The notes below the pieces were generated by a model. The model was not told the origin of the DNA, did no database searches, and saw only the letters and a list, made by a program, of their open reading frames with translations. Made by a program: the position numbers and the translations under genes. Below, one piece after another: positions 13,912 through 54,006 of a stretch of DNA of 64,000 nucleotides; within the stretch, counting starts at the first letter, position 1; every line of letters begins with the position of its first letter. The DNA is from Nitrosopumilus sp. (GTDB lineage Bacteria > Desulfobacterota > Binatia > UBA1149 > SPBQ01): assembly GCA_964225545.1 (NCBI GenBank), contig CAXQPB010000185.1, forward strand, positions 1,781 to 65,780. The letters run 5' to 3'.

Positions 13912-14480
13912 ACGCACGGGCATTGCTGGCACGCATTCGCCAGACGCTGGACTCGTCCCTCGCCAGACTCAACCCGCGAGAGCGCCGGCTGGTCAGCGTT
14001 CTCGGGGCGGTGACGCTCGTCGGCGGTGTCTACATCATGATCGTCGAGCCGTACCAAGAGAGCCGTCACCGCGCCCGCCGGCGGATCGAGACACTCTCCC
14101 GCGACCTCGGAGCGATGGAGTCGCTGGCCGCGAAAATCCGCGCTCTGGAAGCCACCACCGCCAAGGTCGAGAGCAGCGAAGCTACGGCTGCCGGATTTTC
14201 GCTCTTCTCGTTCGTCGACAAGGCAACGCAAGCCGCCATCAGCCGCGATGCCGTGGCCTCGATGAATCCGGCCAAGCGACCGGTTCGCGGAGGCCTCGAA
14301 GAGAGTTCTGTGGAGCTGCGACTTACGTCCGTCGGGCTGCCGGAGATCGTCGCGCTCCTCGAACAGATCGAAGCGACGACCGAACCGGTTTACGTCAAAC
14401 GCGTCGAGCTGAAACGGCGCTACGACGACCGCGCGCGCTTCGACGCGACGATCGTGACCGCTGCGCTGACCCGGACATGA
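13908..14480 (+). CDS. gspM: GspM-like protein
   Basis: 190 aa. Single N-terminal TM (RRLVSVLGAVTLVGGVYIMIVEPY). GTGA overlap with gspL and ATGA overlap with the next gene. Confidence 0.6.
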   Translation: MNARALLARIRQTLDSSLARLNPRERRLVSVLGAVTLVGGVYIMIVEPYQESRHRARRRIETLSRDLGAMESLAAKIRALEATTAKVESSEATAAGFSLFSFVDKATQAAISRDAVASMNPAKRPVRGGLEESSVELRLTSVGLPEIVALLEQIEATTEPVYVKRVELKRRYDDRARFDATIVTAALTRT

Positions 14481-15346
14481 AACGCGCCCTGCCCTTCACC
14501 CTGTTGTTTCTGGCCTTCCTGGTCTGGACCTTTCCTCACCGACTGCTCGTGGAGAGTCTGCTGAAAAACCGCCTGCATGAACTCGATGTCACCGTCACGA
14601 CCGGCTCTGCAGGCCTCACCTGGCCGCCCGGATACGGCGTCGAGGAGGTAAGCCTGGCCCGTGACCCGTACCGGCTGGAGATCGAGTCCGTCCATATCGA
14701 CCTGTACTTCGGCGGTGGGCTCGCCTTCGACGCCGACGCCTGCGGCGGCACCGTGCGCGGACGGTTGAAGGCCGAGCCGCGTGACCGGAAAGTGATAGCC
14801 CGAGACGGGCCCGGCAAGCGCCTCGAGTTCCTGTTCAACTCCATCGATCCGGCGGCGTGCCTGCAACTGGGCACAATCGGGCTGGCGGGCAAGTTCGATG
14901 GGGAGCTGCGCCTGGTCGGCCTCGGTGCAGGCCGCGGCGCTGTCGGCGCGGTCGCCGAGAACGGCCGGATGATTCTCGAAGCGCGCGATGGCCTCGTGTC
15001 GGGAAGTCTCCCCTCTCGCGGTGCGGCCGGACCGGTGCCCATCGGCGAGTGGCAGTTTCAGCGATTGCGCGCCGAGCTCAAACTCGTGCGTGGCGATCTG
15101 ATCGTGGAGCGCGCCAATGCCCGCGCGGAGGGCGTGGAGTGGGAAGTGACGGGCGGTCGGATCGGGCCGGCCGTTGGAGACACCGCGCGGATCAACATCG
15201 AGCTGCGCGCACGCCCCGTCGACGAGTCCGCACGGGCAAAAGCGATGCTCGGACTGTTGCCCAAAGCCGGAACCGATCCTCAGGGATGGCGCCGGTACCG
15301 CCTCACCGGGACGCTCTCCACACCGCGTTTCATCGGGCTGAAATAG
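14477..15346 (+). CDS. gspN: GspN-like protein
   Basis: Start chosen at ATG 14477 (MKRALPFTLLFLAFLVWTFPHRLL, N-terminal TM), overlapping the gspM stop. The track ORF from 13826 is an Arg-rich extension running through gspL/M. Last gene of the cluster. Confidence 0.55.
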   Translation: MKRALPFTLLFLAFLVWTFPHRLLVESLLKNRLHELDVTVTTGSAGLTWPPGYGVEEVSLARDPYRLEIESVHIDLYFGGGLAFDADACGGTVRGRLKAEPRDRKVIARDGPGKRLEFLFNSIDPAACLQLGTIGLAGKFDGELRLVGLGAGRGAVGAVAENGRMILEARDGLVSGSLPSRGAAGPVPIGEWQFQRLRAELKLVRGDLIVERANARAEGVEWEVTGGRIGPAVGDTARINIELRARPVDESARAKAMLGLLPKAGTDPQGWRRYRLTGTLSTPRFIGLK

Positions 15347-15358
15347 ACCGCGCAGGGA

Positions 15359-16672
15359 TCATCCGGCGGCGTCTCTCAGCTCGCGCATGAGCGCAACATT
15401 GTGGGCATGGCCGGTCTTGTGAGCAGTGATCCGCCCGTGCAACGGGCGGCCGAGCAGATAGCCGTCGCCGATGACATCGAGAACCTTGTGACGGGCCAGC
15501 TCGTCTGGGAAGCGCAGCTCCGTGTTCACGACGCCCTCTTGCCCGATCAGAATGAAGTTGCTCAGCCGTCCGCCGTGCCCGAGGCCGGCGTCTTCGAGGC
15601 TGCGTATCTCGTCAACGAAGCCGAACGTGCGTGCCGGGGCGACCTCTCGTCGGAAAGCGTCAGTGCCGGTCATCTCGAACTCGTAGGTTTGCCGGCCCAC
15701 CGGGGACGGGTACTCGAGCTCGTAGCGAACGATCAAACCGTCCCACGGCTCGATCTCGATCCACCGATCCGCGTCGCCGACCCGAATGCGGCGATCCGCT
15801 CTGAGCGGGCTGCATTCGGCATTCTGATCTTCCAGACCCGCGCCCTCGATCAGCTCGCAGAACCCCGATGCGGATCCGTCGAGGATGGGCACCTCGCCAT
15901 CGGTTTTGACGAGCAGGTTCGTGATGGAGTAAGCGTGCAGGGCTGCCATCAGGTGCTCGATGGTAGCCGCGGTCACCGCCTCGCGGCGCAAGCTGGTGGC
16001 GTACCCGGTAGAGTCGACGCAGTCGATATGCGCCTGGACATGGGCACTGGACCCGAGCCTGCCGAAGCGGATACCGGCCCCCGGCGGTAGCGGCTCCAGG
16101 ATCAGCCCTGAGGACACCCCGCTGTGCAGTCCTACCCCACCGGCAACAACGCTGTGTTGGATCGTTCGTTGGCACGCCGCTCCCGAGAAACCCGCAGCCG
16201 GCGCTGCGCTCGGGGTGCAGCCATTCTCGCCACCTTGCGAACCGAGCGCGACTGCCGCTCCCGGCCTTTGCCCCAACACCCGCCCTGTCGCGTCCAGCAG
16301 CGCGCCGTTGGCGAAGGGCTTCGAGACAAAGTCGACCGCGCCCAGGCGCGTGGCGCGCACAGCGAGATCGATGTTGGCGGGTTCGGACACGGCGATGACC
16401 GGCGGCGCTCCCCGCTGCGCGCGCAGCGCCGCGAGTGCCGCAAGAAACTCCAACCCGTCCATGCCGGGCATCCACAGGTCGACAATAATCAGATCCGGTC
16501 CGGCGCTGTCCGGGGCAGCTTCGACGAGATCCATCGCCTCGCGCCCGCCCGTAGCGCATTGAACGGCATATCCGTGCCCGCGCAGAGCCGCTGCGGCGCC
16601 CTCCGGCACCTCGCCCTCGTCGTCGACGACAAGGATGTTGAACGTGTCGTTGGGTGGACAGCTTTCGTTCAC
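15359..16672 (-). CDS. lpxC: Response-regulator receiver domain fused to UDP-3-O-acyl-GlcNAc deacetylase (LpxC)
   Basis: Receiver: NILVVDDEGE...DLIIVDLWMPGMDG...VIAVSEP...DFVSKPF, so the DD, phospho-Asp, Ser and Lys positions are all present. LpxC: TIEHLMAALHAY, FGFVDEI, ARHKVLDVIGDGYLLG, AHKTGHAHNVALM. Start set at GTG 16672. The track extension to 16993 runs into ruvB and has no protein-like character. Confidence 0.85.
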   Translation of the reverse strand: MNESCPPNDTFNILVVDDEGEVPEGAAAALRGHGYAVQCATGGREAMDLVEAAPDSAGPDLIIVDLWMPGMDGLEFLAALAALRAQRGAPPVIAVSEPANIDLAVRATRLGAVDFVSKPFANGALLDATGRVLGQRPGAAVALGSQGGENGCTPSAAPAAGFSGAACQRTIQHSVVAGGVGLHSGVSSGLILEPLPPGAGIRFGRLGSSAHVQAHIDCVDSTGYATSLRREAVTAATIEHLMAALHAYSITNLLVKTDGEVPILDGSASGFCELIEGAGLEDQNAECSPLRADRRIRVGDADRWIEIEPWDGLIVRYELEYPSPVGRQTYEFEMTGTDAFRREVAPARTFGFVDEIRSLEDAGLGHGGRLSNFILIGQEGVVNTELRFPDELARHKVLDVIGDGYLLGRPLHGRITAHKTGHAHNVALMRELRDAAG

Positions 16673-16841
16673 GTCACAGAAGCGCCGCTTCTGAGAGTCG
16701 GCGCAGACGCGGGCGGACCGACGCTCGCGCAGACTGCGCGTACCACGCGGACCGATCTCATGGTACCGGCTGATGTCCCTGGACTCACAGGGAGAGTTAT
16801 CAGCCGACGCAGATCGGCCAGAACGAAACGGCGGGAAATGC

Positions 16842-17885
16842 TCAGAGCAGAGCCGGTTGGCCACCGGTGGGCTTGAAGCCGAAATGCTCCCACGCACGCG
16901 CGGTTGCCACGCGTCCGCGCGGCGTCCGCTGCAGAAAACCGAGCCGCAACAGGAAAGGCTCGTAGACTTCCTCCAGCGTCCCCGCGTCCTCACCGATGGC
17001 CGCCGCCAGGGTATCGATCCCGACCGGGCCGCCGTCGAATTTCTCGAGCAGCGTGCTCACGAACTGTCGGTCCATCGCATCGAAGCCGACCTTGTCAACG
17101 CCCAGCATCTCGAGCGCGTCGCGCACGACGTCGCGCGTGATACGACCATCGGCCCTGACCTGGGCATAGTCGCGAAGTCTGCGCAGCAGTCTGTTGGCAA
17201 CGCGAGGGGTTCCCCGGGCGCGCCGCGCGAGGTCCGCGGCTGCCGCCTCGTCGATCTCGACGTCGAGCAGCCCCGACGAGCGCCGGATGATCGTGGCCAG
17301 CTCGTCGTCCTCATAAAACTCGAGCCGGAGCACCTGGCCGAACCGCGACCGCAACGGCGCAGTCAACAGGCCGGTGCGCGTTGTCGCGCCGACGAGCGTG
17401 AACGGGCTGAGGTCAATCGTGATCGACCTCGCCGCCGGCCCCTCACCGATCACGAGATCGAGCTTGGAGTCTTCCATCGCCGGGTAGAGGATTTCCTCGA
17501 TCGCTCTCCCGAGACGGTGTATCTCGTCAATGAAAAGTACGTCGCCGGGCTCGAGGGCGGTGAGGATCGCAGCCAGATCTCCCGCCTTCTCGATGACCGG
17601 CCCGCTGGTCTGCCGAATGCGGCCGCCCATCTCGGTTGCGATGATGTAGGCGAGTGATGTCTTGCCGAGCCCCGGCGGCCCCATCAGCAGAACGTGGTCA
17701 AGCGGTTCGTTTCGGCCCTGCGCTGCTGCAATCGCGATCTCGAGATTCTCGCGAACCGCTTTCTGGCCGACGTAGTCCGTGAGCGTGGACGGCCGCAGAC
17801 TGACGTCCGCGCCTCCGTCCTCTGCCACCTCGTATGGCGTGACCGAGATCTCACTCATGATTTCACCCGCCGGTTCTTTCGACAA
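16842..17885 (-). CDS. ruvB: Holliday junction branch-migration helicase RuvB
   Basis: 347 aa. [12 protein letters not shown]. Walker [12 protein letters not shown]. Walker [11 protein letters not shown]. Winged-helix C-terminus. Confidence 0.97.
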
Positions 17886-27865: not shown

Positions 27866-28267
27866 GTGACTACCCCCTCCAGCGCCTCCGACACGGCAAA
27901 CCCCACAAACCCCGCAAATCTCGCGGCCGAACTTGCAGCCGACCGCAAAGCCGACGATATCGTCGTCCTCGATCTGCGGGGACGCTCCTCGATCACAGAC
28001 TACTTCGTGGTCTGCACCGGGCGATCCGACATACAGGTACGGGCAATCTGCGAGCGGGTGCGCGAGGGCATGAAGGACGCCGGACACGGCGCACTTTCGA
28101 TTGAGGGTGCGGAGCACGGACACTGGGGCCTCCTCGATTTCGGGGAGGTCGTGGTCCACGTCTTCCAGTCCGAGACTCGAGACCTGTATGACCTCGAACG
28201 CCTGTGGTCCGAGGCTCCGCGCTGGACCTACGAGTCGGCCCCTGCCATAGAACAAAACAGCATCTAG
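27866..28267 (+). CDS. rsfS: Ribosomal silencing factor RsfS
   Basis: DIVVLDLRGRSSITDYFVVCTGRSDIQVRAI...DFGEVVVHVFQSETRDLYDLERLW. Confidence 0.92.
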   Translation: MTTPSSASDTANPTNPANLAAELAADRKADDIVVLDLRGRSSITDYFVVCTGRSDIQVRAICERVREGMKDAGHGALSIEGAEHGHWGLLDFGEVVVHVFQSETRDLYDLERLWSEAPRWTYESAPAIEQNSI

Positions 28268-28308
28268 GGAGCAGCTGCCCCAGCTTCTCCAGCCGCTATC
28301 CCGAGGTC

Positions 28309-29580
28309 ATGTTCCGCCGAATCGTCGCAATCACAGTCTTTGTCATCCTGGTGGCAGCCGTCAGTCTGCTGGTTCACTGGAACGCCGCGCAGACATCCTT
28401 CAAGCTGACGCCCGAGCTGACCTTTAATTTGCCGCTCGGCATTCTCATGATCGCCGCGGCAGTCGCGGGCGCGCTGGTCATGTTCATCCTCGCACTCATG
28501 CGCGAAGGCCGCCTCGCTCTGCGCGACTGGACCGTGCACCGCGAGATCCGGATCGCACAGCGCAACGCAGCGCAGATCACCGAGGCGCGGTCACAGATCC
28601 TCGCCGGAGAGTACAAGCGCGCGCGCAACCTGCTGACGAAGTCCACGCAGAAGCGTGCCATGGAGATCAGCGACATCATCGATTTCGCAGAGACCTACCT
28701 TCTCGAGGGGGATCCGCTCCAGGCACGAAAGGTTCTCGAGGAGGCGCAGAAGGACTTCGGAAACGAGCCGCTGCTGCTGTTCGCGCTCGGCCGCGCGTGC
28801 AAAGCCACAGGGGATCTCCCGGCCGCGCTCAGCGCGCTCGAGCGAGCTGTCTCGGTCTATCCGACAAGCATGCCGATCCTGACCCTGCTTCGGGACATAC
28901 TGTTCGAGACCGAGTCCTGGGAGCGCGCGGCCGAAGTTCAGGGCCGCATCGTTGAGCTCAACGCGGATGATGCTTCGGAGAAGAACTGGCTCCTCGGCGC
29001 CCGCTATGAGGCCGCGCTGCAGGCCGAGGAGAGCGCCAGAGACACAGCGCTGCGCGAGCTCGCGAGCGACGCTCCGGACTTCCTGCCCGTGCTTGTCCAC
29101 CGCGCCAGAATTCTGGCCGACACCGGAGACTGGCGCCGCGCAATGAAGATGCTGGAAAAAGCGGTCCGCAAGCGACCGCACGGCGCGGCGCTCGCTGAGC
29201 TCGAAGCGCTGGTCCCCGCCGAGGAGTCTTCACGCCTGGCGAGGCTCTACGGCAAACTTGTCGCCTCGACTCCGCAGAGCGTCGGCCTGAGGCTGCGGGC
29301 GGCGCACTACCTGATCAAACACGGACGCGTCGAAGAGGCGGCTGAAACGCTCAAACCGCTTGCCGAAAGCGGAGAGGCTTCGGTGGCCAAGGCGCTGTGG
29401 GGGGAGATCCACGACGCTCGTGAAGAATCCTCCCTGGCGCATTTTGCTTACCGGGACGCTCTGATCGAGAGCGAAGCGTTCAGCCCCCACTACAGCTGTG
29501 AGGTATGCGGAGCGGCAACCGGTGACTGGCACGCCCGCTGCGACAATTGCGGCGCATGGGGAATGTTCGAGTCGATTTAG
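28309..29580 (+). CDS. lapB: LPS assembly protein LapB (YciM)-like TPR/rubredoxin protein with a LapA-like two-TM N-terminus
   Basis: Start at ATG 28309. Two TMs (IVAITVFVILVAAVSLLVHW; LPLGILMIAAAVAGALVMFILALM), then TPR-like repeats, then C-terminal CEVCGAATGDWHARCDNCGAWG (CX2C-X10-CX2C). Confidence 0.75.
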   Translation: MFRRIVAITVFVILVAAVSLLVHWNAAQTSFKLTPELTFNLPLGILMIAAAVAGALVMFILALMREGRLALRDWTVHREIRIAQRNAAQITEARSQILAGEYKRARNLLTKSTQKRAMEISDIIDFAETYLLEGDPLQARKVLEEAQKDFGNEPLLLFALGRACKATGDLPAALSALERAVSVYPTSMPILTLLRDILFETESWERAAEVQGRIVELNADDASEKNWLLGARYEAALQAEESARDTALRELASDAPDFLPVLVHRARILADTGDWRRAMKMLEKAVRKRPHGAALAELEALVPAEESSRLARLYGKLVASTPQSVGLRLRAAHYLIKHGRVEEAAETLKPLAESGEASVAKALWGEIHDAREESSLAHFAYRDALIESEAFSPHYSCEVCGAATGDWHARCDNCGAWGMFESI

Positions 29581-31696: not shown

Positions 31697-31833
31697 GGAC
31701 TGCTCCCTCACAGCGGTACCACGCTTCCGTGCACGCGCAACCTGGACCCGTCGCCCTGGCAGTATACAATCCACGCACGGTGCAGGATTCCCGCGTCAGT
31801 CATCCGTCCGCCGGTGCGCCTCGAGTCAAGGCT

Positions 31834-32547
31834 GTGCGGCTGCTGTTTGTCGCGATGTTGACGCTGGCGAGCGGGTGTGGAGCGCCCGCGCCTCTCGGCG
31901 AGCAGCAACTGTACGACGAGGCGAGCCAGGAGTTCGAGCGCGGCAACTTCAGCCTGGCCAGCCAGCGCTATGACGAACTCCTCGAGCAGTTTCCGTTCTC
32001 GGACCTTTCCGAGGTCGCGCGGCTTCGGGTAGGACAGGCCTACTACCTCAACGGCGACTACCACAAGGCCATCGCGGCCTTCCGCGACTTCGAGAGACTC
32101 CACCCGACCAGCCGGCTGCTCGACTTCGTTGAGTACACGATCGGGATGAGCCACCTCGACCAGGCGCGCTCGCGCGACCGGGACAAATCAGCGACGGATG
32201 AGGCGCTGCGACAGTTCGACCGCGTCGGAGAACGCTACCCGGCGTCGATCTACGGGCGGCTGGCGGAGTATCGCGAGGAGCAGTGCGAGCAGAAGCTCGC
32301 CAGCCACGAACTCTACGTCGGTGATTACTACGTCAAAACAGGCGAGGTCACAGCAGGCCTTGCCCGCTACCGTTACGTTCTCGACTACTATCCCGCCACC
32401 GACGCGGCGCTCCTGTGTGCCGAGCGACTCGGCCTGCCTTCCGACGATTACGGACCGAACGCACCGGAGCGGACCTCTGGATACGAGATCATCGAGATCC
32501 CCGCGTCCGAGACGGGCATACTCGACCCGAACCTCGGTCTCGACTAG
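31834..32547 (+). CDS. bamD: Outer-membrane protein assembly lipoprotein BamD (YfiO)
   Basis: Lipoprotein signal MRLLFVAMLTLASG|C from GTG 31834. TPR-like body (FPFSDLSEVARLRVGQAYYLNGDYHKAIAAFRDFERLHP...YPASIYG...YVGDYYVK). Confidence 0.85.
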   Translation: MRLLFVAMLTLASGCGAPAPLGEQQLYDEASQEFERGNFSLASQRYDELLEQFPFSDLSEVARLRVGQAYYLNGDYHKAIAAFRDFERLHPTSRLLDFVEYTIGMSHLDQARSRDRDKSATDEALRQFDRVGERYPASIYGRLAEYREEQCEQKLASHELYVGDYYVKTGEVTAGLARYRYVLDYYPATDAALLCAERLGLPSDDYGPNAPERTSGYEIIEIPASETGILDPNLGLD

Positions 32548-50487: not shown

Positions 50488-51507
50488 GGCCTCGAGAAAA
50501 CGGTCCATCTCTGCGTCCGTGCCGATCGTCACGCGAAAGCCGTCGCGAAGGCCATCGCGGTCGAAGTAACGAACGAGGACGTCGGCTGCGCGGAGTTTCT
50601 CGAACATCACCCGCCCTCCCCTCGCTCCGCAGTCGACCCACAGGAAATTCGCCTGGGACGGCTCGACGCCGAAGCCCTCTGCGCGGAGTCTGTGGGCCAC
50701 GCGATCTCGCGTGTCCTGAACTTTCCGGACCGTCGCTTTCATTGCGGCCTGATCATCCAGCGCCGCGACCCCCGCCGCGCACGCAAGGCGCGAAACGTTG
50801 GAGGAGTCTTTGACTTTGGCAAACTCCGCGATCAGCTCGGCAGGCCCGAACGCCAGCCCGAGGCGCACCCCCGCCATCGAGTAGGACTTGGAGAAGCTGC
50901 GCAGAACAATCAGGTTCGGAATTTCGCCGACGAGTCCGATCGCGCTGGAGTCTCCAAAGTCGACGTACGCCTCGTCTGAGACCACGAGCCCGTCGACCGA
51001 CTCCGCCAGCGCAGCGATATCGTCGAGCGGGATCCCGAAGCCGTAGGGAGCATTCGGGTTACAGACGAACGAAACCGCAGCCCCGATATCGATCAGTGAG
51101 CGGCAGCTGCGATCCGCGATTTCGACAACCCGTGCTCCGGCAATCTCGGCCAGGGTGCTGTAAAGCGAATAACTCGGCACGGTGTATGCGACCGTATCTC
51201 CGGCGTCGACACAGGCTCGCAGGCACATGGAGAGCAGCTCGTCCGAGCCGTTGCCGGCAAGCACCTGGGCCGGCTCAAGGCCGTAGACCTCTGCCGCCTT
51301 GTCGCGGAGTTCATCGGCCAGCGGAGACGGGTAGCGTTCGAGCGCGCCGGATGCTGCGCGACCGATCGCCTCTACGACACGCTGCGAGGGCGGATACGGA
51401 TTCTCGTTGGTATTGAGCTTGATCAACCCCGGCCGGCGCGGCTGTTCGCCGGGAACATAGCCCGCGAGAGCCGCCGTGCGCGCAGAGACCGGCAGCTTCT
51501 TTGTCAT
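50467..51507 (-). CDS. hisC: Histidinol-phosphate aminotransferase
   Basis: 346 aa. KLNTNENPYPPS. PLP-lysine context LRSFSKSYSMAGVRLG. Confidence 0.9.
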   Translation of the reverse strand: MTKKLPVSARTAALAGYVPGEQPRRPGLIKLNTNENPYPPSQRVVEAIGRAASGALERYPSPLADELRDKAAEVYGLEPAQVLAGNGSDELLSMCLRACVDAGDTVAYTVPSYSLYSTLAEIAGARVVEIADRSCRSLIDIGAAVSFVCNPNAPYGFGIPLDDIAALAESVDGLVVSDEAYVDFGDSSAIGLVGEIPNLIVLRSFSKSYSMAGVRLGLAFGPAELIAEFAKVKDSSNVSRLACAAGVAALDDQAAMKATVRKVQDTRDRVAHRLRAEGFGVEPSQANFLWVDCGARGGRVMFEKLRAADVLVRYFDRDGLRDGFRVTIGTDAEMDRFLEALLADPV

Positions 51508-53006
51508 CGGACTGCCCCTGAAACCGTGCGTGATTCCGTTGTTGCAATCGTGCCCGCGTCTTCTTCAAGCATGGGAATCATCGAGGATCGCTGCGCTTTG
51601 AGACGGCCCTGCGGACGCTGCGACCCCGGCGCCGCCGGCGGCGTATTTGAAGACTGCTCTTCCAGCACCCGCCTGCGGCGATCCAGCGCGACGACCAACG
51701 GATCGTCTGCCGTGATCGCGGCATCGGCTTTCGTATAATAGAGGAGCGCCTGGCCCGGTTGTCCCATCATCTCGGCCGCGATGCCGTAATAATAGAAGCC
51801 GGCACCCGTTCGTCCTGCTTTATCGAGAGCGCGGCCGAGTGTCTGCAGAAGTTGCGGCTTATACGGATAGAGCTGATGGGCACGCTCGAGCTCCTGAACC
51901 GCCGAGTCATGCTCTCCCATCTGGTGAAGGACCTCCCCGAGATCCGCTGCCGCGTTCCAGTCTCCCGGCGCACGTTTGACCGCCCGCTCGAGGCGCTCGC
52001 GTGCGCCCGCGAGCTCGCCGGTTCGCAGGTAGGCACGACCCAGCTCACGGTCGACCTGCCGCCCGGCTTCCTCCGCCTGCTCGAGGTAGCGGCGAGCCAG
52101 CTGCCAGTCCTGCCCGTGGACCATAAGAACGCCGATGAGCTCGAGGGCCTTCGGGCGCTTTTCCGCGGTGGCCGCTGCAAGCCTGCGCTCGTAGGGCGGG
52201 ATCGCCTCCCTGCGTGTCTGCGCGTTCGCTCGAGAGATCGCCCGCGCGCGCTCGTAGCGCCAATCGGCCGGCGCAGTCTCCAGCTCCCACTCGGTCTTGC
52301 CGAGAGCCGCCTCGAGATAGGCCATCCGCTCGCCGGTCAGCGGGTGGGAGAGGAAATAGGGAGGCACGACGGTAGGGTTCACCTTTTGCTCATCGTAGAT
52401 CTTGCGCAGCAGGCCGAGCATCGCCTCGGGTTCGTATCCCGCCTTCTCCGCGAACTCGATGCCGAGAAAATCCGCTTCGCGCTCAAAATCACGCTGGTAC
52501 TTGAGCTGCTGCACAGAGGCGGCAGCGATCGCCGCCTGACCGAGGACCGGGTTGATGAAGGTCAGAAACATGCCGAGGAGGCTTGCGTAGTTTGACGCCT
52601 TGGCCTTCTCCTGCTGGCGCATCGAGTGATGTGCATGCGCGTGCGCGACTTCGTGTCCGACAACACCGGCGAGCTCTGCCTCATTGGCAGCACGCGCGAT
52701 AAGACCCGCGTGCACGAAGATCTTCCCCCCTGGAACGGCGAAGGCGTTGATCGAATCCTCGTTGACGATGAAGAACTCGTAATCGAAGGGCTGACTGCCG
52801 AGCGTATCGACGAATCGATTGCCGACCTCGGTGATGAACCCGTTGATTTCGTAATCGTCGATCAGCGGAATCCCGAAGCGCGCCTGGCGAGCGAATTCGT
52901 CTCCGACCTGCCGTTCCGTCGCGACGGTTCCCCACGCGATGACCGGAGAGAGCGCGACAGCGAGGCTCAGCGCAGCAACGCCTGCCTTTGGAAGGACTCG
53001 AAGCAT
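51504..53006 (-). CDS. M48-family metalloprotease with TPR domain (BepA/YfgC-like)
   Basis: HExxH in VVGHEVAHAHAHH. TPR-rich C-terminal half. Start set at ATG 53006 (MLRVLPKAGVAALSLAVALSPVIAWG signal), which avoids overlap with hemB. Confidence 0.82.
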   Translation of the reverse strand: MLRVLPKAGVAALSLAVALSPVIAWGTVATERQVGDEFARQARFGIPLIDDYEINGFITEVGNRFVDTLGSQPFDYEFFIVNEDSINAFAVPGGKIFVHAGLIARAANEAELAGVVGHEVAHAHAHHSMRQQEKAKASNYASLLGMFLTFINPVLGQAAIAAASVQQLKYQRDFEREADFLGIEFAEKAGYEPEAMLGLLRKIYDEQKVNPTVVPPYFLSHPLTGERMAYLEAALGKTEWELETAPADWRYERARAISRANAQTRREAIPPYERRLAAATAEKRPKALELIGVLMVHGQDWQLARRYLEQAEEAGRQVDRELGRAYLRTGELAGARERLERAVKRAPGDWNAAADLGEVLHQMGEHDSAVQELERAHQLYPYKPQLLQTLGRALDKAGRTGAGFYYYGIAAEMMGQPGQALLYYTKADAAITADDPLVVALDRRRRVLEEQSSNTPPAAPGSQRPQGRLKAQRSSMIPMLEEDAGTIATTESRTVSGAVR

Positions 53007-53037
53007 GAAGCGGCGCGCCGGCAGCGCCCCCCCAGCC

Positions 53038-54006
53038 TCAGAGAGACCTGGCGAAGTCCATCGCATGATAGGTGATGATGATATCCGCGCCCGCTCGTTT
53101 GATCGACGTAAGAGTTTCCTTCATCGCCCGCTGCTCATCGAGCCAGCCCGCAGCAGCGGCGGCCTTGAGCATCGAGTACTCTCCGCTGACCTGGTAGGCT
53201 GCGACGGGACAGGAGCAGGCGTCGCGAACGCGCCGGATCACGTCAAGGTACGGCAGCGCCGGCTTTACCATGACCATGTCGGCCCCCTCCTCGATATCGA
53301 GAAGCACCTCGCGCAAGGCCTCGACCCCGTTGGCAGGGTCCATCTGGTAAGAATTTCGGTCCCCGAACTGAGGCGCCGACTCCGCAGCGTCGCGAAACGG
53401 TCCATAGAACGCCGAACAGAACTTGGCGGCGTACGAGAGAATCGCGATGTCCTCGTGACCGGCCTCGTCAAGCGCATTGCGGATCACACCGACTCGGCCG
53501 TCCATCATGTCGGACGGCGCGACAATGTCCGCCCCTGCACGCGCATGCGAAACCGCCTCGAGTGCGAGCAGCTCGCAGGTCGGATCGTTGGCTACCGTCT
53601 CATCTCTGATGACGCCGCAGTGCCCATGGTCTGTGTATTCGCACAGGCAGACGTCGGTCACCACGAGCATGTCCGGCACCGAGTCCTTGATCGAGGAGAC
53701 TGCTCTCTGGACGACGCCGTCCTCAGACCAGGCCTCCGTTCCTGTCGCGTCCTTGCTGTCAGGGATTCCGAAGAGAAGCACCGCAGGAATTCCGAGCGCC
53801 GCGGCCTCGGCTGCCGTCGCCGTGGCACGATCGACAGACTGCTGAAACACGCCGGGCATCGAGCTCACGGGTTCTTCGACCCCCTTGCCGGACCGCACGA
53901 ACAGCGGGAGTACGAGATCGGAAACCGAAACGTCGGTCTCACGGACCATTCGGCGCAGGGTGGCCGAGCGGCGCAGCCTGCGAGGACGTTGTAACGGATA
54001 TGCCAC
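53038..54006 (-). CDS. hemB: Porphobilinogen synthase (ALA dehydratase)
   Basis: 322 aa. RPRRLR. Cys-rich Zn site [14 protein letters not shown]. Active-site context [10 protein letters not shown]. Confidence 0.95.

Follow-up and report, generated by a model that had tools for sequence, protein, structure and literature searches.

A receiver domain fused to LpxC at a Binatia locus: a putative response regulator with a lipid A deacetylase as its output

Results

Architecture of the REC-lpxC gene and its product

We analyzed a 64-kb stretch of contig CAXQPB010000185.1 (hereafter the window, meaning the whole stretch), with a focus on a reverse-strand gene between ruvB and a type II secretion system (T2SS) cluster. 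This gene, REC-lpxC, encodes a 437-aa protein in which a CheY-like receiver (REC) at the N terminus is joined through a variable linker, about 35 aa long, to a complete LpxC, the deacetylase at the committed step in making lipid A. The gene and the parts of its product are located as follows.

15359..16672, reverse strand: REC-LpxC coding sequence, 437 aa plus stop, GTG start at 16672 (open reading frame list, Pfam, TIGR00325 and the matching gene model of contig L002)
16289..16636, reverse strand: REC domain, residues 13-128 (Pfam Response_reg, E 2.4e-23)
16619-16624, reverse strand: receiver acidic pair D17/D18
16478-16480, reverse strand: codon of the receiver phospho-acceptor D65
16385-16387, reverse strand: receiver S96
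16319-16321, reverse strand: codon of receiver K118, which P119 follows
16172..16273, reverse strand: interdomain linker, residues 134-167, with many Gly, Ala, Ser and Pro residues, low conservation and predicted disorder
15377..16171, reverse strand: LpxC deacetylase domain, residues 168-432 (Pfam, E 5e-81, profile positions 1-266 of 268)
15953-15958, reverse strand: LpxC E239-H240
15476-15490, reverse strand: LpxC H395-K396-x-x-D399
15407-15409, reverse strand: LpxC H422

The open reading frame (ORF) is uninterrupted. Its longest open version reaches 16993, with the upstream part overlapping the end of ruvB, and the GTG at 16672 is also the start called in L002, a 95%-identical contig from a different sample and the closest relative. 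The original prediction, made from the letters alone, had described a single ORF holding a receiver and a complete LpxC, and this is borne out by Pfam, by TIGR00325 and by the single 437-aa frame. No exact-sequence match for the protein was found by database lookup.

The receiver scores 82.9 bits against the Response_reg model (PF00072, cutoff 30.2), carries the aromatic switch residue F115 in addition to the residues listed above, and has NtrX as its top NCBIfam match. The deacetylase part scores 239.3 bits against the lpxC equivalog TIGR00325 (cutoff 187.25), and the top solved structures for the protein are the LpxC enzymes of P. aeruginosa and A. aeolicus (E ~1e-49). Alignment to P. aeruginosa LpxC places the zinc and catalytic residues at E239-H240, H395-K396, D399, D403, T349 and H422, so that T349 and D403 are intact as well; their E. 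coli counterparts we take to be E78/H79, H238/K239/D242, D246, T191 and H265. By these profile and residue matches, both domains fully belong to their families, the catalytic one to LpxC and the N-terminal one to the receivers.

An AlphaFold2 (AF2) model built on 120 homologs has a mean predicted local distance difference test score (pLDDT) of 86.6 and a predicted template modelling score (pTM) of 0.84. Five strand-helix units are predicted across residues 12-132 (pLDDT ~90), the LpxC region is mostly above 90, and disorder is confined to the first seven residues and linker residues 138-163 (linker pLDDT <50). Foldseek with this model returned LpxC structures only; the LpxC part matches A. aeolicus LpxC (1yh8_A) with a target-normalised template modelling score of 0.93 and a root-mean-square deviation of 2.0 A over 272 columns.

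Distribution and conservation of the fusion

Homologs were collected from protein-database clusters and by an alignment query against species-representative genomes, for which counts refer to the best 80 loci listed; about 20 kb was read per relative and 64 kb for the present genome. Taxon names are the NCBI record labels of metagenome bins, some of which are clearly wrong. Both domains occur in all of the 120 best clusters (49-93% identity, 382-468 aa), whose named members are Candidatus Binatia, 'Deltaproteobacteria' metagenome-assembled genomes or similar. A full-length fusion is likewise encoded at each of the 80 best loci, mostly from Candidatus Binatia, one of which sits on a complete 5.7-Mb chromosome, and two complete chromosomes carry a continuous REC-LpxC ORF. 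No frameshift or stop between the domains, which had been named as a possible refutation, was found. An artefact joining two genes was rejected because the continuous ORF recurs in independent assemblies; with the fusion present in 120/120 clusters and 80/80 genomes, it is not a sequencing artefact.

Conservation is strong in both domains. No sequence in the 120-sequence alignment departs from the receiver quintet, the aromatic switch residue or any of the LpxC catalytic residues, and these include every receiver and LpxC residue that the original prediction had named; the receiver residues are therefore kept in orthologs, as it had demanded. Column identity is 0.77 for LpxC, 0.68 for REC and 0.28 for the linker, which is 29-49 aa long across the family and rich in Ala, Gly, Arg, Pro and Ser. 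The fused proteins end soon after the catalytic His (family median 17 residues, 15 after H422 in the window protein). When E. coli LpxC is aligned to the window protein, about 30 of its residues remain beyond the aligned part. The E. coli-type C-terminal tail that directs FtsH degradation is thus absent.

The suggested domain-architecture search revealed REC-LpxC forms across many lineages, with Candidatus Binatia dominating the best hits. By NCBI labels, the fusion occurs in Binatia, Acidobacteriota, Thermodesulfobacteriota, Nitrospinota, Nitrospirota and others; short fusions were also found in contigs labelled Thermoanaerobaculia, Holophagae, Syntrophobacteraceae, Thermodesulfovibrionia and Bdellovibrionota. 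Some short REC-LpxC genes have no adjacent kinase, namely those of L133, L137 (GC 67%), L136 (GC 34%) and L157 (GC 50%). These four share a different conserved neighbourhood, near rimP-nusA-infB, truB or purA, and mreB, and the GC contents of 34-67% among L136, L157 and L137 indicate that the fusion spans distant lineages. Fusion contigs labelled Promethearchaeota archaeon (L164, JAIWHJ010000348.1), Enterobacteriaceae (L117/L141), Mycobacterium sp. (L140) and Margulisiibacteriota (L124) almost certainly reflect binning or labelling errors. A cultured isolate, Desulfopila sp. IMCC35006, encodes a 452-aa REC-LpxC (L227:7968-9323, NZ_SWCM01000007.1) with no adjacent NtrY-type kinase.

A dedicated NtrY-type kinase in relatives

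On a 1.7-Mb contig of a Binatia genome, a 754-aa membrane histidine kinase is encoded directly upstream of REC-lpxC on the same strand. Its Pfam domains are NtrY_N (above cutoff), HAMP, PAS, HisKA and HATPase_c. With this kinase as tblastn query, 75 of the 80 loci proved to have a homolog immediately upstream in the same orientation; four of the other five have no kinase there, and one ends 100 bp before the gene and cannot show it. The estimated gap between kinase stop and fusion start (69 loci with a near-full-length kinase) has a median of ~17 bp and a range of -29 to 135, which is typical of an operon. Moreover, NtrX is the best NCBIfam response-regulator match for the receivers of typical family members (117-137 bits), with FixJ second and NtrC or AtoC third in all three members scored, and the family receiver motif SGHGNVETAVRATRLGAVDFIEKPF is of the NtrX-like type. 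Given that 75 of the 80 genomes encode a dedicated NtrY-type kinase directly upstream, two-component input to LpxC is, on gene order, the natural reading at the family level.

Loss of the kinase gene in the window clade

Synteny was compared over ten related loci whose REC-lpxC has the ruv block upstream of it or a T2SS cluster converging on it. The gene order in these relatives is yebC, ruvC, ruvA, ruvB, NtrY-type kinase, REC-lpxC and then the converging T2SS genes (orf289, gspM, gspL and so on). The kinase is directly upstream of REC-lpxC in nine of the ten, the tenth (L088) ending too near the gene to show it; ruvB immediately precedes the kinase in eight, and six cover the whole order. Genomes nearest by LysS (65-72% identity) also hold the most similar fusions. 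The order in the window is identical except that the kinase gene is missing, and the same holds for L002. L322, the contig that encodes P0002 (71% identical), also has REC-lpxC right after ruvB but is too short to include the T2SS side. The features flanking the fusion in the window are as follows.

16842..17885, reverse strand: ruvB, the upstream neighbour, ending the yebC-ruvC-ruvA-ruvB block (open reading frame list, synteny, and Pfam RuvB domains on the L002 equivalent)
16673..16841, reverse strand: 169-bp spacer from ruvB stop to REC-lpxC start, the slot of an NtrY-type kinase gene of ~2.2 kb in the nearest relatives
14477..15346, forward strand: orf289, last ORF of the T2SS cluster, 289 aa, no Pfam hit, converging on the REC-lpxC 3' end

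These neighbours are those originally described, with ruvB upstream on the same strand and the convergent T2SS cluster ending at 15346. No remnant of a kinase was found in any frame of the spacer. Taken together, the gene orders indicate that the kinase gene has been lost from a conserved slot in the window clade (window, L002 and L322). The loss must be old enough for the clade to have it in common, yet every member has kept the receiver residues.

The spacer contains an inverted repeat, GGTACC-N17-GGTACG, at 16739-16767, which is kept in L002 and L322 while its flanks diverge; in relatives, eight junctions between ruvB and the kinase gene were checked and none has it. A palindrome, CAGAAGCG-G-CGCTTCTG, occupies 16677-16693 and ends 4 nt before the GTG start. 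Either element could act as an operator or fold into an RNA hairpin. No Shine-Dalgarno sequence is obvious before the GTG; a sigma70 promoter scan of 15200-17000 gave no site, and two weak terminator-like matches were no better than chance. With regard to L322, a metagenome contig of 2.6 kb, the last 85 RuvB residues (L322:822-1076) are 97.6% identical to the window, the RuvB match ends upstream of position 822, and the adjacent REC-LpxC (L322:1231-2553) is 71% identical. This mismatch could be due to chimeric assembly or local recombination. The 289-aa ORF on the other side is syntenic in all close relatives, with 31-45% identity in L083-L103 (tblastn), and by this conservation is an uncharacterised T2SS-associated gene.

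Evolution of the receiver after kinase loss

Pairwise Nei-Gojobori estimates of the ratio of nonsynonymous to synonymous substitution rates (dN/dS) were compared between the domains. In the window versus L002, the receiver has a dN/dS of 0.28 and LpxC of 0.16; versus L322 (dS ~0.79), the values are 0.29 and 0.17. The linker reaches 0.5-0.6 in this clade. Among the 25 closest Binatia-type pairs, nearly all kinase-linked, receiver dN/dS ranges from 0.01 to 0.24 and is about equal to that of LpxC. The receiver/LpxC ratio is therefore ~1.7 in the window clade versus ~0.9 in kinase-linked pairs, and receiver dN is ~3.7 times that of a kinase-linked pair at similar dS (0.225 vs 0.061). Overall, the orphaned receiver has evolved two to three times faster than kinase-linked receivers. 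At the same time, its dN/dS of ~0.29 implies that purifying selection persists, and by these estimates the window receiver is under relaxed but real purifying selection. The LpxC domain of the window protein is not more divergent than usual (62% identity to the family vs 59% for a typical member). The proposal that LpxC receives two-component input, with which our analysis began, is thus partly supported: for the family by the NtrY-type kinase encoded upstream at 75/80 loci, and less plainly for this genome, whose locus lacks the kinase and whose receiver evolves faster.

Origin of the fusion

A profile search covering 1.84 billion representative proteins recovered ~25 short-form clusters, ~15 long-form clusters (650-736 aa) and two clusters of ~500 aa. 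The long form (P0122-P0146; L163-L176 and L187, for example L174:7923-10193) is 650-757 aa long, and its Pfam order is REC, a sigma54-type AAA+ domain, the AAA lid, sometimes a Fis-type helix-turn-helix (HTH), and then LpxC. The AAA+ domain is decayed, with scores of 29-119 bits, no GAFTGA motif and a replaced Walker B glutamate in 15 of 15 sequences; the HTH is kept in some proteins and deleted in others. Contigs with long fusions are labelled Nitrospinota, Desulfomonile and Syntrophaceae, and at L163, L168 and L170 a kinase lies directly upstream. The ~500-aa form (P0127 and P0132; 491-505 aa) consists of REC, a Fis-type HTH_8 and LpxC.

An unfused arrangement was found in six loci (L201, L211, L218, L219, L221 and L238; for example L211:4397-9365), labelled NC10, Acidobacteriota, Holophagales and others. 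Here a stand-alone lpxC precedes a gene of the same kinase family, and a separate REC-AAA+-HTH regulator comes next. The AAA+ domains of these regulators are intact (233-250 bits in the three scanned), and a GAFTGA-type motif is present in 6/6 (GSFTGA in one). NtrX proper is not known to carry GAFTGA. As they keep the motif, the unfused regulators look like sigma54-dependent activators rather than NtrX proper. The series of separate lpxC, kinase and sigma54 regulator, then REC-AAA+-HTH-LpxC, then REC-HTH-LpxC and finally REC-LpxC suggests, judging by domain content, that an lpxC-regulating two-component system was fused onto its target.

In a distance-based neighbor-joining (NJ) tree of LpxC domains, most fused forms group together with weak support (bootstrap 50). 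Two pairings, one of a long form and an HTH form and the other of a second long form and a short form, have 100% bootstrap, which points to domain loss more than once. A few 'free' LpxC sequences lie inside the fused clade; they are short (289-292 aa) and possibly truncated gene calls.

Other envelope genes in the window

Three further genes of the window are relevant to the outer membrane.

28204-29580, forward strand: LapB-like tetratricopeptide repeat (TPR) protein (Zn_ribbon_LapB 21.8 bits, cutoff 25.7; NCBIfam LapB 42 bits, cutoff 363)
31729-32547, forward strand: BamD (TIGR03302, 172 bits, above cutoff)
51504-53066, reverse strand: BepA-like M48 protease with TPRs (179 bits, below cutoff)

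The first of these had been reported as a LapB-like gene. Its TPR repeats and a weak zinc-ribbon match give that weak support, Zn_ribbon_LapB and NCBIfam LapB both remaining below their cutoffs. Two weak matches, LapA-like at the N terminus and a LapB-type zinc ribbon at the C terminus, fall short of the Pfam cutoffs; the protein is a distant LapB-like candidate that possibly combines LapA and LapB in one gene. The BamD and BepA-like genes are consistent with a diderm that makes lipopolysaccharide (LPS).

Discussion

A proposed phospho-switch on LpxC

We consider it somewhat more probable than an even chance that the LpxC of this cell is built as a response regulator whose partner in the family is an NtrY-type kinase, that phosphorylation of D65 directly switches LpxC, and that the protein has been orphaned in the window clade. 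Under this proposal, an NtrX-like receiver would be tethered by a flexible linker to the committed-step deacetylase of lipid A. In the family, an NtrY-type membrane kinase co-transcribed just upstream would phosphorylate the receiver, and the phosphorylated Asp (D65 in the window) would set LpxC output directly, with no transcription step. Conceivable actions of the receiver include CheB-like occlusion of the active site, phospho-dependent dimerization, and control of LpxC stability or membrane localisation. In the window clade, whose locus has lost the kinase gene, REC-LpxC would be an orphan response regulator with a functional-looking receiver, which presumably obtains phosphate from a small phospho-donor or from a kinase whose gene lies elsewhere. 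As to the sign of the effect, we lean weakly towards phosphorylation lowering LpxC activity, because clades without the kinase must still make lipid A and because NtrYX acts negatively on lpxC in alphaproteobacteria.

For its history, the ancestor may have had a kinase and a sigma54-type regulator beside lpxC that controlled lpxC transcription; the regulator would then have fused to LpxC, after which its AAA+ and DNA-binding modules decayed. Published work in D. vulgaris and R. sphaeroides fits such ancestral transcriptional control: lpxC is the only mapped target of the sigma54 regulator DVU2934 of D. vulgaris, and deletion of ntrYX in R. sphaeroides raises lpxC mRNA 8.8-fold and LPS levels, apparently indirectly. 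The orthologous regulator operon of S. fumaroxidans has lpxC as its direct upstream neighbour. It is plausible, at slightly under even chances, that a transcriptional two-component system for lpxC was fused to its own target enzyme and stripped stepwise, more than once, to a bare LpxC phospho-switch, and that the window clade later lost the kinase gene.

Several observations weigh against this proposal. Tblastn and profile searches detected no histidine kinase, second receiver or second LpxC in the 64-kb window; the suggested check for a second lpxC and for orphan kinases, made over these 64 kb, therefore speaks against a local kinase. We infer phosphotransfer and its effect on LpxC from sequence, and a docked receiver-LpxC pair is hinted at by the pTM of 0.84 alone. 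With a long, unconserved linker between them, the domains are not coupled by a rigid signalling helix. The window receiver is also diverging, with 45% identity to the family versus 56% for a typical member, and its conserved SGHG motif has become SEPA. Concerning the origin, a single fused clade in the NJ tree has a bootstrap of 50 only, and the LpxC of the Desulfopila sp. IMCC35006 group clusters with free LpxCs at 100% bootstrap, so that the Desulfopila-type REC-LpxC may be an independent fusion.

Alternative explanations

The receiver might instead govern the amount or location of LpxC rather than its catalysis, either as a phospho-dependent degron or adaptor handle or as a tether to the NtrY-type kinase. 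The organisms studied regulate LpxC either through proteolysis (FtsH/LapB, possibly Lon) or through its localisation at the membrane (Ght), and the fused proteins, having no long C-terminal tail, would need another degradation handle. A long, flexible and unconserved linker also fits a tether better than an allosteric coupler, and the window holds the weakly matching, distant LapB-like gene. We nevertheless regard this as unlikely, since the pTM hints at a defined receiver-LpxC packing, which favors direct control, and no protease or adaptor gene is conserved beside the fusion in the loci examined. Less probable again, in our judgment, is a receiver that has become independent of phosphate in the window clade and, like those of atypical response regulators, has a structural role or regulates constitutively. 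Such a role would agree with the empty kinase slot in the window, L002 and L322, with the lack of a kinase in the 64 kb, with the raised receiver dN and receiver/LpxC ratio, and with the loss of SGHG and the gain of small insertions in the window receiver. It is opposed by the fact that members of the clade as little as 71% identical still have the five phospho-chemistry residues and the aromatic switch residue, and by a receiver dN/dS that shows clear purifying selection; moreover, the kinase may simply have moved, our view being of 64 kb of the genome.

That REC-LpxC is a specialised paralog, such as a conditional second deacetylase or an enzyme with a ligand-sensing domain, beside an ordinary lpxC elsewhere, seems very improbable. 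The few 'free' LpxC sequences within the fused clade would suit it, although their short length may mark truncated calls. The protein exceeds the curated lpxC equivalog cutoff, its zinc and catalytic residues are all invariant, the LpxC-domain dN/dS is 0.16-0.17, synteny is conserved in the close relatives compared, and the window contains no detectable second LpxC. An assembly or frameshift artefact joining two separate genes has a negligible chance, given the same continuous ORF in all 120 best clusters, all 80 best species genomes and two complete chromosomes. With these alternatives weighed, direct phospho-control of LpxC through the fused receiver remains our preferred reading.

Significance

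LpxC sets lipid A flux, both too little and too much of it are harmful, and it is a major antibiotic target. Its known controls are indirect or lineage-specific: FtsH/LapB/YejM proteolysis, MurA binding (Pseudomonas), Lon, Ght, and NtrYX/ChvGI transcription. If the proposal is correct, a receiver on the enzyme, paired with a dedicated membrane sensor kinase, would provide a novel control of unusual directness, by which an envelope or redox signal could reach outer-membrane lipid synthesis within seconds. The domain series would be a rare readable case of a regulator that was fused to its target and shed its transcription machinery, and it independently supports the poorly understood NtrYX-LpxC link of alphaproteobacteria. 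If fusion was followed by reduction, the window clade would represent a natural experiment in kinase gene removal. Most carriers are uncultured, and the cultured Desulfopila sp. IMCC35006 is a possible experimental handle.

We found no published description of a REC-LpxC fusion in the literature on LpxC, receiver domains and Binatota lipopolysaccharide, which agrees with the earlier statement that no characterised example was known. The words 'receiver', 'fusion' and 'response regulator' are all absent from a 2025 review on lipid A regulation. Precomputed Pfam annotations already display the architecture, in proteins that bear simply the name LpxC. We rate REC-LpxC as a putative response regulator with enzymatic output and a proposed new mode of LpxC control.

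Comparison with known systems

Compared with the stand-alone LpxC of E. coli, P. aeruginosa and A. aeolicus, the window protein has the same catalytic domain, fold, zinc ligands and catalytic Glu/His/Thr/Asp, to which an N-terminal receiver and a linker are added. The C-terminal tail of E. coli LpxC directs FtsH degradation; it is absent here, and the short end resembles that of A. aeolicus LpxC. LpxC-FabZ is likewise a natural LpxC fusion, whose partner is a C-terminal dehydratase and not a signalling domain. Membership of that family (NF009667) was rejected for the window protein, which scores 182.6 bits against a cutoff of 465 with a match ending at model position 300 of 464 and no FabZ region.

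The relationship to NtrY/NtrX is closer on the signalling side. The upstream kinase of relatives has the NtrY architecture, the receiver is closest to the NtrX model, and the NtrYX system of alphaproteobacteria has already been linked physiologically to lpxC and LPS levels. The fusion has LpxC where NtrX has its AAA+ and HTH output, and the window also lacks a kinase in view. As a candidate NtrX (NF051870) the window protein was rejected: it scores 68.8 bits against a cutoff of 600, matches in the receiver part only (model positions 3-118) and has no AAA+ or HTH by Pfam. On this evidence it is related to NtrX by descent of its receiver and is not a member. In D. vulgaris, DVU2931-DVU2934 comprise a kinase and an NtrC-class regulator dedicated to lpxC. 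The S. fumaroxidans arrangement, with lpxC beside the orthologous operon, shares its layout with the six unfused loci, which may be counterparts of the D. vulgaris system; control in D. vulgaris is transcriptional, with separate proteins.

CheB, PleD, RpfG and RssB-type proteins share with REC-LpxC the design of an N-terminal receiver, a flexible linker and a C-terminal enzyme, which in the present case is known from sequence. In CheB and its like, phosphorylation of an aspartate sets the output; the CheB receiver, the textbook example, blocks the active site until it is phosphorylated. Compared with CheB-type proteins, the output domain of REC-LpxC is unrelated and belongs to a core biosynthetic pathway instead of signalling.

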